Shown piece by piece: positions 1-4,307 of a stretch of DNA of 4,307 nucleotides. Source of the stretch: a virus. Its lineage: Duplodnaviria; Heunggongvirae; Uroviricota; Caudoviricetes. The stretch is from IMG/VR virus record IMGVR_UViG_2585427776_000007, positions 1-4,307 of that record; one strand, 5' to 3'. Each line of letters starts with the position of its first letter. The first letter of the stretch is position 1. Under the pieces are notes generated by a model, which did no database searches, had not been told where the DNA came from, and saw only the letters and a program-made list of their open reading frames with translations. Made by a program: the position numbers and the translations under genes.

Positions 1-447
1 ATACACAACGCCAGCACGTCCGCAGCGTTCGTCTGCAAAAGACTGAACCCACTCCACTGACGGATACAGTAACCTTATGGTTTTCAGTGCATAACTGATG
101 GCCCGTGATTCAGAGTTGCGGGGCATGTCGTCGTGTAGCCACATGCGGTTCAACTCCATATAGCCCCGGTTATCCGTTTCAAGCACGACACGACGACCAG
201 AGTTGGGGTTAAGGGCATATCCCCACTGGAGAACGCCAACCAGATCGCGTCCGCTGAATACTCCCAAGTGGAGGTAAGAGTTATTCACAAAACGGCGGGA
301 ATAGTGCTTTGTCTGAATAATTGTGCGGGCCAGCCAGCAGGATATGGTTTCAACGCGCAGCTCCTTTGAACCATAGCCAACAATCTGGCCTTCATACTCA
401 ATAACGCACGGTTTCGTCAGAATGCGTGATTTCTTCTCTTTTCCCAC
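1..447 (-). CDS. mom: DNA modification protein Mom, N-terminal part only (about 149 codons); the 3' end runs off the left edge of the window
   Basis: Minus-strand frame is open from position 1 up to 477 and translates to ...[55 protein letters not shown]...GVVY, recognised from memory as Mu Mom. It lies immediately downstream of com and overlaps it, as in Mu. Start is assigned to the GTG at 445-447 (minus), which is preceded by GGAG and sits in the hairpin described in findings; an in-frame ATG at 475-477 has no Shine-Dalgarno and is considered less likely. The ORF track omits it because it is edge-truncated. Confidence 0.8.
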
Positions 448-586
448 AATGTTTCTCCGTGGGATGCTCGCAGGCATTCAGCATTATGATATGACGTTTG
501 CAACGCGGACACCTGATTTCAATGTGATCAAAGGAATCCGCCTTAAATAACAGTTTGTTGCAGTTTTTACAGCGAATTGATTTCAT
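398..586 (-). CDS. com: Com, zinc-finger translational activator of mom (62 aa)
   Basis: The 62-aa [47 protein letters not shown]... matches Mu Com from memory, with the Cys4 motif CxxC...CxxC. A strong Shine-Dalgarno (AAGGAGGTGAG on the minus strand) lies directly upstream of the ATG at 586. Its 3' end overlaps the mom start. Confidence 0.9.
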
Positions 587-599
587 CTCACCTCCTTTG

Positions 600-700
600 C
601 ATCAATTCGCCACTATCTTAAAAAACATCGTGGGTTGAGTGTGGTTATTGGGGCATAATCGATCTGTATTGCCGATCGATTTGATTGATTCGATCGTCGT
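600..700 (-). promoter_or_regulatory. Pmom promoter and control region: candidate -10 TAAGAT (minus strand, 614-619), T6 run in the spacer (620-625), weak -35, dyad TTATGCCCCAATAA (645-658) as candidate C-activator site, and three GATC Dam sites at 661-664, 674-677 and 692-695
   Basis: All motifs are read directly from the sequence. The arrangement (activator-dependent promoter with a poor -35, a T-run spacer and an upstream cluster of three GATC sites) matches what is known for Mu mom regulation by C protein and Dam/OxyR. The exact transcription start is inferred (about 607), not observed. Confidence 0.6.
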
Positions 701-1262
701 TTTCTATATGCGTTCGTTTCGCGGGGTGTTTTTTATACAGAGTTGACAGAGCCACATCATAGATCAATGCAACCTGCTTGCGGGGGATTCCTTGTGCTAA
801 TAAACGCCCGGCCTGCTCCCATTCCGCTTTGGTTAGTTTAGGTGGTCGCCCACCAATACGGCCTTTATTTCTGGCGGCAGCAAGTCCAGCCATCGTTCGC
901 TCGATGATTAGTTCTCGTTCCATTTCAGCCAGGGCACCCATAACGTGGAAGAAAAAACGCCCCATTGGAGAAGATGTGTCTATGCTGTCGGTAAGACTGC
1001 GAAAATTAATCCCTCGCTCCCGTAGTTCCCCGACGAGGGAAATCAGATGTTTCATGCTTCGCCCGAGGCGATCCAGTTTCCAGACAACCAGTGTGTCACC
1101 TTTTTGAAGGCGCTTTAAAGCGCGTTTTAATCCAGGTCTGTCTGTCCTTGTTCCGCTTAATTTATCTTCAAATATTTGTTCACATCCTGCACAAACAAGA
1201 GCGTTTCGTTGCAGGTCTGTATTCTGGTCATTTGTTGATACCCTTACATAGCCAATCAGCAC
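645..1262 (-). CDS. gin: Gin-type serine DNA invertase (Gin/Hin/Cin/Pin family), 205 codons as read here with a GTG start
   Basis: N-terminus (M)LIGYVRVSTNDQNTDLQRNAL... carries the catalytic serine motif of small serine recombinases, and the C-terminal part has the helix-turn-helix region (GRPPKLTKAEWEQAGRLLAQGIPRKQVALIYDVALSTLYKK). A GGGAGA Shine-Dalgarno sits 6 nt upstream of the GTG at 1260-1262. Near-identical to Mu Gin as recalled. The canonical 193-aa protein would stop at 681-683; here that codon reads CAA (see findings). Confidence 0.95.
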   Translation of the reverse strand: MLIGYVRVSTNDQNTDLQRNALVCAGCEQIFEDKLSGTRTDRPGLKRALKRLQKGDTLVVWKLDRLGRSMKHLISLVGELRERGINFRSLTDSIDTSSPMGRFFFHVMGALAEMERELIIERTMAGLAAARNKGRIGGRPPKLTKAEWEQAGRLLAQGIPRKQVALIYDVALSTLYKKHPAKRTHIENDDRINQIDRQYRSIMPQ

Positions 1263-1316
1263 TCTGGATCTCCCGTTTAAAAGCGCAAATCATGCCATGC
1301 AGGCCGGAAACAGCCA

Positions 1317-1342
1317 TTATCTAAAACCTCGGTTTGCAGGAA
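1317..1342. other. gix recombination crossover site (26 bp: two 12-bp half-sites around a 2-bp core), gin-proximal boundary of the invertible G segment
   Basis: TTATCTAAAACC-TC-GGTTTGCAGGAA is read from the sequence and differs at about 2 positions from the Mu gix site as recalled (TTATCCAAAACCTCGGTTTACAGGAA). It lies 55 bp upstream of the gin start, and the Sv reading frame runs through it. Confidence 0.85.
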
Positions 1343-2356
1343 ACAGTAAACAAGGCTGGTAACGCCGTTCAGCGTTCCGGCGATAAAATGACCGGAGAAC
1401 TGAAAATTGGCATGATGAATGCGCTGCGAATTTTTAATGATGCCTTCGGTCTTATTTTCCGTCGTTCAGAAGAGTACCTTCATTTCATCCCTACGGCTGA
1501 AGGACAAGGCGAAAACGGTGATATCGGCCCATTAAGGCCATTCGCTATAAATCTGAGAACAGGTGCTATATCTGTCAGCCACGGGGCCAAAATTGATGGT
1601 GGGCTGGCGCTTGGTACAGATAACGCACTGGGCGGTAATTCCATTACTCTCGGAGATAACGACACTGGTATTAAACAGGGCGGCGACGGTGTCCTTTTAT
1701 TCTATTCAAATGGACAACTGGCATTTGGGCTTCAACCCGCATCTGCTGATTTTTATAAGCGGGTTGCATATATTCATCAGGGAATAATTCCTGATGGAAG
1801 TGGCGCATTTGCAGACCAGTTGAATAATGCCACCGCGCCTTTTGTTCAGACGCAGTTTGCCTGGAATCCCACTCCTGGTGGTCATTACGTGCCGATAGTT
1901 AAGGGCTTGTCCATTCGCAATGGACAGGGCTATCCCGGCGCGGTCAGCTTTGGGTATTTACTGACAGAACAGTATGGATTTCCGGTTCCATGTATTCATA
2001 TGCGTGGCGATGGCGGTAATGATGCTTTATGGCAGTTTAACCCGAACGATAAATCCTTTATTTCACCGGGTGCTCTTATTGCGGGTGGCGTCCGTTATAA
2101 CACCGATGGAAATATATTTGGTGGGTGCTGGGGTTCAAACTTAAATGATTACCTGAATAGTTCTTTTATCAGAAATGTGCGTCTGGGAGGCAGACGTTCT
2201 GACACATTATATCGCGGAGGACTTTGCGAACCAGGTAATGGTCATGTGACAACAGGATTGCAAATTATTGGTGAGGTTGATGGAGATGACTGGATGGTGT
2301 CACGACCACTACAAAAATACATTTCTGGTAACTGGTATAACGTTGAACAGGCATAG
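1334..2356 (+). CDS. S: Tail-fibre variable C-terminal cassette (Sv-like). It is a promoterless gene segment that needs fusion to the constant 5' part of the fibre gene across gix; in this orientation it is not fused
   Basis: 340-codon open frame beginning inside the gix site. The TTG 'start' in the ORF track is not a real initiation site, and the frame is closed by a TAA at 1322-1324 just upstream. The product is Gly/Asn-rich, typical of phage tail-fibre distal domains, and ends ...RPLQKYISGNWYNVEQA. It is followed 15 nt later by a tail-fibre assembly gene with AGGAG ahead of its ATG. Confidence 0.8.
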   Translation: MQETVNKAGNAVQRSGDKMTGELKIGMMNALRIFNDAFGLIFRRSEEYLHFIPTAEGQGENGDIGPLRPFAINLRTGAISVSHGAKIDGGLALGTDNALGGNSITLGDNDTGIKQGGDGVLLFYSNGQLAFGLQPASADFYKRVAYIHQGIIPDGSGAFADQLNNATAPFVQTQFAWNPTPGGHYVPIVKGLSIRNGQGYPGAVSFGYLLTEQYGFPVPCIHMRGDGGNDALWQFNPNDKSFISPGALIAGGVRYNTDGNIFGGCWGSNLNDYLNSSFIRNVRLGGRRSDTLYRGGLCEPGNGHVTTGLQIIGEVDGDDWMVSRPLQKYISGNWYNVEQA

Positions 2357-2371
2357 CCATCAGGAGAATAT

Positions 2372-2899
2372 ATGCAACATCTGAAAAATATTACCGCCGG
2401 AAACCCCAAAACCATTGAGCAGTATCAGCTTACGAAAAAAGCTGGCGTTATCTGGCTATATACAGAAGACGGTAAAAACTGGTATGACGAATTAAAAAAC
2501 TTTCAGGATGATACTTTAAAAATAGCTTATGACCAGAAGGGGATTATTCGTTGTATTGAGAAAGACGTATCAATGCTTAACCCTGACGGGTTAAGTGTTG
2601 TTGAGTTACCGAATATAACAGCCAACCGTCGCGCCGATATCTCGGGAAACTGGAAGTTTCTGGATGGTAAAGTAGTAAAGCGGGAATATACAAAACAGGA
2701 ACTGCAACAGCAGGCAGAGTTACAAAAAGCCGCTTTGCTTTCCGAAGCGGAGTCTGTGATTCAACCGCTGGAACGTGCTGTCAGACTGAATATGGCAACT
2801 GATGAGGAACGCACACGACTGGAATCATGGGAACGCTACAGCGTTATGGTCAGCCGTGTGGATACTGCAAAGCCTGAATGGCCACAGAAACCAGAATAA
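2372..2899 (+). CDS. U: Tail-fibre assembly protein (Tfa/U family), 175 aa
   Basis: [41 protein letters not shown]... has the conserved N-terminal region of Mu U / lambda Tfa-like chaperones. AGGAG lies at 2362-2366. Length 175 aa matches Mu U as recalled. Confidence 0.85.
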
Positions 2900-2908
2900 C
2901 AACAAATT

Positions 2909-2926
2909 AAGGCCCGTACGGGCCTT
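2909..2926. terminator. Bidirectional intrinsic terminator hairpin between the convergent U and U' genes
   Basis: Perfect palindrome GGCCCGTACGGGCC (2911-2924) flanked by AA on one side and a T-run (TTTTCT) on the other, placed exactly between two convergent stop codons. Confidence 0.7.
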
Positions 2927-2929
2927 TTC

Positions 2930-3463
2930 TTATTCTGGTGGTTCCGGGAATGTTACAGGAAGAACCGAGGTATCAGTTGTCTCAACCTGTTGCACGTATC
3001 GCATCCAGTTCATCAGTTGCTGTCTGTCTGAATCAGTGATAATCCCCAAAGTAAGCTGTGTTTGCCAGAACTGCGTTTTTTCTCTGGCCTGCTGTAATAA
3101 TATTTTTTTCTGGTTTTCCGTCTGTAGGCGCAACTCTTCTTCGGTATATACACGTTTAATGACTGCGCCATCTTTAAACATCCATTTACCTGAGTCGTCA
3201 GCACGCCGGTTGGCGGTAATATCAGGAATCTCAACGACGCTATAACCTTCAGGGTTAAGTGTGGAGGCATCTTTGGTTATGGCAACAATAATATTATTTT
3301 CATCGTAAACAATCTTTATGGTGTCTGTCTGAAATTTTTTCACTTCCTCATACCAGTTTTTTCCGTCCTCAGAGTAAAGCCAGATAACTCCGTGTTTCTT
3401 TGTTAACTCATACTGTTCCAGTGTTTTAGCATTACCCGCTTTTATGTTCTTTAAGTGCATCAT
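2930..3463 (-). CDS. U': Tail-fibre assembly protein (Tfa/U' family), 177 aa, partner of the alternative fibre cassette
   Basis: [41 protein letters not shown]... is a paralogue of the 175-aa U with a diverged C-terminal third. Its start ATG lies 1 nt after the TAA of the upstream S'v cassette (TAA-T-ATG), suggesting translational coupling. Confidence 0.85.
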
Positions 3464-3464
3464 A

Positions 3465-3805
3465 TTAAACGCTCGCTACATTATACCAGGTGCCATTTAT
3501 ATACTTTTGAACGGGTCTGTAATAAACGCCCGCTATATTATCGGCAGAGTTAGACCCTGTATCCTGAACATTAATACCAGACAATACATGACCTGAAGGG
3601 CACTGGAAATTCCATGTTTGCCAGTTGTTCACTCCATAATATTGCCGTGAACCAAGTCGAACATCTTTCACATAACGGGAATCAAAGTTACCGTAATCCG
3701 AGGGGTTAACACGCCCTGTAATATTTATGGTTTTATTACTTTGAATGCTTCCGGAGACAAAGCGCATAACATGGACGTTATTAGCATAAACATCCAGATT
3801 ACCAT
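3465..3805 (-). pseudogene. S': Alternative tail-fibre variable cassette (S'v-like), truncated at its 5' side by the IS insertion; only the C-terminal ~113 codons remain
   Basis: The minus-strand frame is open from the TAA at 3465-3467 up through 3805 (...[42 protein letters not shown]...[17 protein letters not shown]) and continues into the IS terminal sequence before hitting a stop at 3831-3833. The ATG at 3765-3767 reported by the ORF track is internal. The C-terminal motif is shared with the plus-strand Sv cassette. Confidence 0.75.
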
Positions 3806-3859
3806 TGAACCGCCCCGGGAATCCTGGAGACTAAACTTCCTGAGAAAGAGGTAAACAGG

Positions 3860-4186
3860 ATGACTAAAAATACTCGTTTTTCCCCCGAAGTCCGTCAACG
3901 GGCAGTCCGTATGGTTCTGGAAAGTCAGAGCGAATATGACTCACAATGGGCGACAATTTGTTCCATTGCTCCAAAGATTGGCTGTACGCCGGAGACTCTG
4001 CGTGTCTGGGTTCGCCAGCATGAGCGGGATACCGGGGGCGGTGATGGAGGGCTCACCACCGCTGAACGTCAGCGTCTGAAAGAGCTGGAACGTGAAAATC
4101 GTGAACTGCGCCGCAGTAACGATATCCTTCGCCAGGCTTCCGCTTATTTTGCGAAGGCGGAGTTCGACCGCCTCTGGAAAAAATGA
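3860..4186 (+). CDS. IS3-family transposase OrfA (helix-turn-helix/leucine zipper), IS629-like
   Basis: The 108-aa [111 protein letters not shown] ends at an A6 run (4178-4183) followed by TGA, the usual position of the -1 frameshift site. Confidence 0.9.
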
Positions 4187-4307
4187 TGCCACTGCTGGAT
4201 AAGCTGCGTGAGCAGTACGGGGTCGGACCGCTATGCAGCGAACTGCATATTGCCCCGTCAACGTATTACCACTGTCAGCAACAGCGACATCATCCGGATA
4301 AACGCAG
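4183..4307 (+). CDS. IS3-family transposase OrfB (catalytic part), 5' end only; -1 frame relative to orfA; continues beyond the window
   Basis: Open frame from ATG at 4183 to the window end ([41 protein letters not shown]...), overlapping the orfA stop in the -1 frame, as in IS3-family OrfAB arrangements. Confidence 0.8.

Follow-up and report, generated by a model that had tools for sequence, protein, structure and literature searches.

An IS629 insertion in one of two opposed tail-fibre cassettes of a Gin-type invertible segment, in DNA that combines Mu-like and lambdoid prophage sequence

A tail-fibre cassette was found to be interrupted by IS629 in the window, the whole stretch of 4,307 nt analysed here (positions 1 to 4,307 of IMG/VR record IMGVR_UViG_2585427776_000007). 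Comparison of the two junctions with empty sites shows that a full-length element (1310 bp) transposed into the conserved motif ...GFKQNGD/GNLDVYAN... of one fibre cassette and duplicated ATG (here and below, a slash marks the edge of the element). As judged by the same comparison, the insertion splits the N-terminal ~197 codons, on the side of gix and the fibre trunk, from the receptor-binding C-terminal 112 codons and the chaperone U′. The cassette lies in an invertible segment whose left part matches Mu-like prophages and whose right part matches a lambdoid-type allele. Feature coordinates are given in the table.

Features of the window (strand +, − or. for none)
Feature	Position	Strand	Basis or remark
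mom, N-terminal 149 codons, continues beyond the left edge of the window	1-447	−	PF25680 Mom, 1.8e-48
com, 62-aa zinc-ribbon mom regulator, overlaps the mom start	398-586	−	PF10122 Zn_ribbon_Com; annotated Com in Esc31
gin, full-length serine DNA invertase, 205-aa ORF	645-1262	−	PF00239 Resolvase, 7.6e-50, and PF02796 HTH_7
gix, invertase side, 26 bp, TTATCTAAAACC-TC-GGTTTGCAGGAA	1317-1342	.	aligns with both gix of L009 and with the distal gix of L001 and L032
Sv, intact fibre cassette adjoining gin, 340-codon open frame	1334-2356	+	
U, tail-fibre assembly chaperone of Sv	2372-2899	+	PF02413 Caudo_TAP, 7.8e-35
861-bp stretch shared without difference by the two parental types	2441-3301	.	3′ end of U, hairpin, 3′ two-thirds of U′
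GC-rich hairpin between convergent U and U′	2909-2926	.	−12.2 kcal/mol, z = −3.5
U′, tail-fibre assembly chaperone of the disrupted cassette	2930-3463	−	PF02413 Caudo_TAP, 1.3e-31
C-terminal remnant of the second fibre cassette (S′v type), 112 codons + 2 nt + stop	3465-3805	−	equals the cassette ends of L024 and L006
CAT, which is ATG in the sense of the fibre gene; one of the two copies of the duplicated 3-bp target	3803-3805	.	three-way junction comparison
IS629, left 502 nt	3806-4307	+	identity, Pfam and Rfam matches
orfA	3860-4186	+	PF01527 HTH_Tnp_1, 7.4e-13
ALIL pseudoknot (frameshift)	4141-4257		Rfam RF01497, 120 bits, E 7e-32
A6 run of the IS629 part	4178-4183		
orfB, cut by the window end, DDE domain outside the window	from 4183	+	

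IS629 and the fibre cassette that it interrupts

The sequence to the right of the cassette remnant had been called IS629 from the letters of the window alone, and this call was borne out. Many E. coli copies that bear the annotation "IS3-like element IS629 family transposase" matched it in full (502/502 nt, 100%), and no mismatches were found against positions 1-502 of an intact 1310-bp IS629 (L019:1501-2810). An imperfect terminal inverted repeat of ~25 bp, TGAACCGCCCCGGG, begins at 3806, and the orfA helix-turn-helix (HTH), the overlapping orfB and the −1 frameshift with a downstream pseudoknot were all present. In every feature the element is the same as IS629, a member of the IS3 family with IS1203 as a close relative, which is abundant in Shigella and E. 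coli O157:H7. When the window was joined to L032, an IMG/VR contig carrying the other end of an IS629, the composite element measured exactly 1310 bp, with orfA and orfB both open, and differed from the annotated intact copy by one substitution, Ala to Val. Judged by this composite, the element is probably active.

The minus-strand fibre frame was open from its stop (3465-3467) through 3805 (translation of 3465-3950(−)), after which 8 more codons inside the IS lead to a TAG in the same frame at 3831-3833. Megablast matches in hundreds of E. coli genomes broke exactly at 3805. In intact homologues the frame goes on for ~197 codons past this site, up to the distal gix; the intact cassette of JJ1886 (L001) comprises 310 codons, from the distal gix at L001:8327-8352 to the stop at 7394. 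The sequence-only reading had placed the IS within, not beside, the invertible fibre segment and had counted 113 remaining codons of about 300. The count was accurate (112 codons plus 2 nt, against 310 in JJ1886), and since IS629 does lie to the right and full-length homologues run on beyond the equivalent of 3805, the observation stands. That the cassette instead ends naturally near 3805, with the IS merely adjoining it, has next to no probability: a 100-aa ORF with its own ATG (3465-3767) could be called there and nothing else favours this reading, whereas all intact homologues are longer, in frame and across the site, and the frame is open over the IS junction.

The exact U′ protein (177 aa) was found in 662 collection blocks; the 10 places listed were mostly lambdoid prophages adjoining trp, and the lambdoid loci among them lacked this IS. 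Homologue searches with the N-terminal part of the cassette, with a chimera of Mu Sc and this part, and with the read-through ORF of L032 yielded no truncated read-through product, and returned intact or unrelated partial fibres. One candidate for a junction product, P0010, which ends in ...QNGDG, was rejected, since its contig (L020) stops 6 nt past the site within intact sequence; the end motif is conserved among cassettes.

For the junctions, the window, L032 and empty sites (L024, L001 and L008) were compared three ways. The empty site reads AATGGCG-ATG-GTAATCTGG, the window junction on the fibre-coding strand reads ...ggcggttca/ATGGTAATCTGG, and the L032 junction reads AATGGCGATG/tgaaccgcc.... 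In this comparison ATG is duplicated, the right junction being taken from another public sequence that is not demonstrably of the same genome. L032 was identified with a predicted right junction made up of the right terminus of IS629, a gap of 2-5 nt and the continuation of the intact cassette; the prediction gave one exact match in the viral contig collection, which was L032, and was absent from the metagenome contigs scanned. The 3-bp duplication that the sequence-only reading had forecast was thus located in a public contig. Target duplications of 3-4 bp have been reported for IS629 (PMC3271280).

The insertion site alone sets this copy apart from other IS629 copies: neither junction was found when 5426 complete E. 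coli genomes were searched by megablast with junction-spanning queries. Exact scans for the left junction gave no match in the genome, metagenome or viral contig collections, and nothing in the plasmid collection covered at least 80% of the window. The left junction is also present in two independent public assemblies, L005 (ENA metagenome) and L006 (Logan run), both of which end at gix; the insertion allele therefore circulates.

The same cassette was also seen interrupted at window positions 3797/3798 (L004, 1-29) and 3785/3786 (L007, 1-53), 8 and 20 bp away, in further public assemblies. One of these two other elements is an IS903B end, and the remaining one is presumably an IS1 inverted repeat. 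An insertion hot spot, with three different ISs within 21 bp, was considered and dropped: the query was the 100-aa ORF, which selects truncations just upstream of its ATG, so that selection accounts for at least part of the clustering.

The Mu-type end and the layout of the invertible segment

The left end of the window had been read as Mu-type, correctly. Positions 1-1350 were 99.6% identical to Escherichia virus Mu_3F6, and gin, com and mom were 92.7% identical to those of Mu, 94.9% to those of D108 and 99.6% to those of Mu_3F6; from this identity and the domains of the mom-com-gin module, the left part is a genuine Mu-type right end. The gin ORF has 205 aa here and 197 aa as annotated in Esc31 and in the L031 prophage record, with small indels at the C terminus; Mu Gin has ~193 aa.

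Two marks of a fibre-switching segment lie in the window: a serine invertase next to the fibre genes, with its catalytic domain at the N terminus and an HTH at the C terminus, and two opposed sets of fibre end and chaperone, Sv-U on the plus strand and U′-S′v on the minus strand. The Sv frame reads across the gix next to gin, and the exact 322-aa Sv product (ATG at 1388) occurs in Mu-like prophages at many chromosomal sites. No second copy of gix was found within the window; an inverted copy is present at L032:6122-6147 and would be the partner site if L032 adjoins the window. The hairpin at the centre of the segment is, as modelled, probably a bidirectional terminator.

Gene order and orientation (Sv-U / U′-S′v, gix, then gin-com-mom) are those of the Mu G segment, which likewise has a 26-bp gix with central TC and two opposed cassette-chaperone pairs. 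Both variable cassettes, however, are unlike those of Mu, so that merely 46% of the window aligns to Mu; the distal cassette here is of lambdoid type and interrupted by the IS. The variable cassettes also differ from those of D108. Mu, P1, P2 and lambdoid phages are known to exchange tail-fibre cassettes with one another. By analogy with L009 and Mu, the intact Sv-U set next to gin would be in the silent position and the broken cassette in the trunk-joined, expressed position, and a complete fibre would then need inversion of the segment.

Two parental types and the far side of the IS

Against Mu-like prophages (L009-L017) no mismatches were found over window positions 1-3301, a portion that holds mom, com, gin, gix, Sv, U and part of U′; dense differences follow, and there is no alignment past 3519. 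Against the lambdoid-type segments L024 and L006 no mismatches were found over 2441-3805, and in L006, which has the IS, identity spans the IS junction as well; over 1229-2440 the window and L024 differ at 20 positions, and the window has the Mu-type bases G at 2048, T at 2134 and A at 2440. Because the last lambdoid-type mismatch is at 2440 and the first Mu-type mismatch at 3302, the switch lies inside the 861-bp stretch that both types share. This exact mosaic was present in no complete E. coli genome (best match 99.8%). The nearest Mu-like prophages carry a different S′v cassette, on a 460-aa fibre. Among 24 contigs with the Mu-type Sv, the S′v cassette of the window was in none of the places listed, all of which had another S′v, and the mosaic was still not seen when the Sv look-up was repeated with a short flank. 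The Mu-like prophage identical over 3.3 kb (L009-L018) lies near arnA, near yfbK, near a formate hydrogenlyase-like operon and inside the tail genes of another prophage; this number of chromosomal sites fits a currently active transposable phage.

The sequence-only reading had predicted, beyond the IS, the remainder of the cassette, an inverted gix copy and a constant fibre region. The first two are present in L032, but its trunk is lambdoid and lies in a prophage remnant: across gix, L032 and L024 read ...VIEYLGLRELG, as against ...FIQNLGLQE in Mu Sc. L032 was 100% identical over 6203 bp to L024 (CP050200.1), in which the site is empty and the cassette intact. In both, a 5′-truncated lambdoid fibre ORF directly follows the lysis genes, and the prophage is without head and tail genes, so that the fibre in this context was already functionless even without the IS. 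The deletion that took out the head and tail genes (L032 ~5319/5320; L024 8419-9999) has fused the DNA directly after the Rz lysis gene to the central part of a lambdoid fibre gene.

The last 20 nt of the window (4288-4307) are identical to the last 20 nt of L032 (7551-7570), inside IS629. This is suggestive of, without proving, neighbouring contigs of one k-mer assembly, and suggests that the window, at 4307 nt, may represent a complete contig. If the two are neighbours, the uninterrupted pass through 2441-3301 would argue that this stretch is single-copy in that genome, which would make the Mu/lambdoid join real, a chain laden with assumptions; the DNA from gix to gix would in that case have grown from ~3.06 to ~4.37 kb. 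L032, the only right junction found, leads to the lambdoid trunk and not to Mu Sc. Mu-like fibres with the same cassette module exist (P0121, 477 aa; P0125, 405 aa). Even with a real join, the constant region to the right of the IS could be other than Mu Sc.

Lambdoid prophages adjoining trp, for example in ST131 JJ1886, were 98.9% identical to window positions 1072-3805 and have the same cassette pair, and are as close to the host structure of the window as the Mu G segment is. Of the invertase they keep only a remnant of 180 bp, and com and mom are missing from them, whereas the window has the complete Mu-type module. Genomes differ in the orientation of the lambdoid segment at trp: in L022 (9214-14014) the fibre has 968 aa and ends in Sv, and in L026 (7174-12076) it has 941 aa and ends in S′v. 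As the invertase of JJ1886 is reduced to ~180 bp, inversion would have taken place at an earlier stage, or with another invertase acting in trans.

The cassette had been described as the S′v of this Mu-like prophage. Its ownership by that prophage is doubtful, because the window equals the Mu-like prophages only up to 3301, from 2441 through the IS junction it matches the lambdoid allele, the nearest Mu-like prophages have another S′v and the only far side found is lambdoid.

Origin of the arrangement and what it means

The explanation preferred here, which we consider somewhat better than an even bet, is that IS629 transposed into the lambdoid-type segment of a degraded prophage and that this segment was later joined to a Mu-like mom-com-gin module. 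The junctions show the transposition itself, with the 3-bp ATG duplication, into one cassette of an opposed pair in a Gin/Pin-type invertible segment; identity by descent suggests that the insertion allele arose in a lambdoid-type segment within a degraded prophage. Its association with the Mu-like right end (mom-com-gin-gix-Sv-U) would have come later, via the 861-bp identical stretch, either by homologous recombination between two prophages in one cell or by an assembler crossing from one locus to another. For the join itself, natural recombination and an assembly chimera are about equally likely. Simple transposition is supported by an empty site in intact homologues, a complementary right junction with the ATG duplication and a composite of 1310 bp. 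Against lambdoid descent, the right flank of the window's own source was not recovered, and L032 as its neighbour is suggestive only; the fibres P0121 and P0125 show that Mu Sc could lie beyond the IS; and L005 and L006, ending at gix, give no wider context. That the window is a natural hybrid, in which recombination in the 861-bp U/U′ stretch fused the right end of an active Mu-like prophage, with gin, com and mom intact, to the invertible segment of a decayed lambdoid prophage already carrying IS629, is proposed tentatively, as rather less than an even chance. In such a hybrid a functional Gin could flip a segment of ~4.4 kb containing a transposition-competent IS, and the chromosome between both prophages may be deleted or inverted.

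Two other readings were weighed. The IS could lie inside the G segment of a Mu-like prophage that is complete in all else, with the rest of S′v, an inverted gix and Mu Sc just to the right and one host range lost. This appears unlikely, although mom, com, gin, gix, Sv and U match an active-looking Mu-like prophage at many chromosomal sites, Mu-like fibres with this cassette type exist, and the join would be real if the window is a single-copy contig: from 3302 the window no longer follows any of the Mu-like prophages retrieved and equals the lambdoid-type allele, the 24 contigs with the Mu-type Sv have another S′v in every place listed, the sole right junction found goes to a lambdoid trunk, and the mosaic is in no complete E. 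coli genome. The loss of a host-range alternative, asserted in the sequence-only reading, accordingly divides into two parts; the cassette is broken, but the Mu-like prophage is affected only if the Mu/lambdoid join is real. Much less probable still is an IS-mediated deletion or rearrangement that would have left IS629 at the edge of a deletion, with the N-terminal part of the cassette, the distal gix and the DNA beyond lost. The unrecovered right flank of the source would suit it, as would the IS629 copy of L019, whose flanks show no duplication, and IS629-associated deletions are known in O157 (from background cited in PMC3271280). Against it stands a contig in which the reciprocal junction is exact and the 3-bp duplication perfect, as simple transposition predicts and as would be unlikely after an adjacent deletion.

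No new type of system is seen here, and an IS629 insertion in a prophage fibre gene is an ordinary event. Among the IS629 copies in four O157 genomes, 62% lie within prophages or prophage-like elements (PMC3271280), and IS629 is a main driver of the diversity of Stx2a phages (PMC4587872). The general importance of the insertion is small, as IS629 is already known mostly in prophages, inactivating prophage genes. For annotation, the case advises caution, in that the Mu-like prophage is not to be scored as having lost a host range before the join of Mu-like and lambdoid sequence is verified. If the join is real, it would be a concrete case of two unrelated prophages recombining via shared invertible fibre modules, a kind of event by which a chromosome can be rearranged and an IS carried into DNA that Gin inverts.
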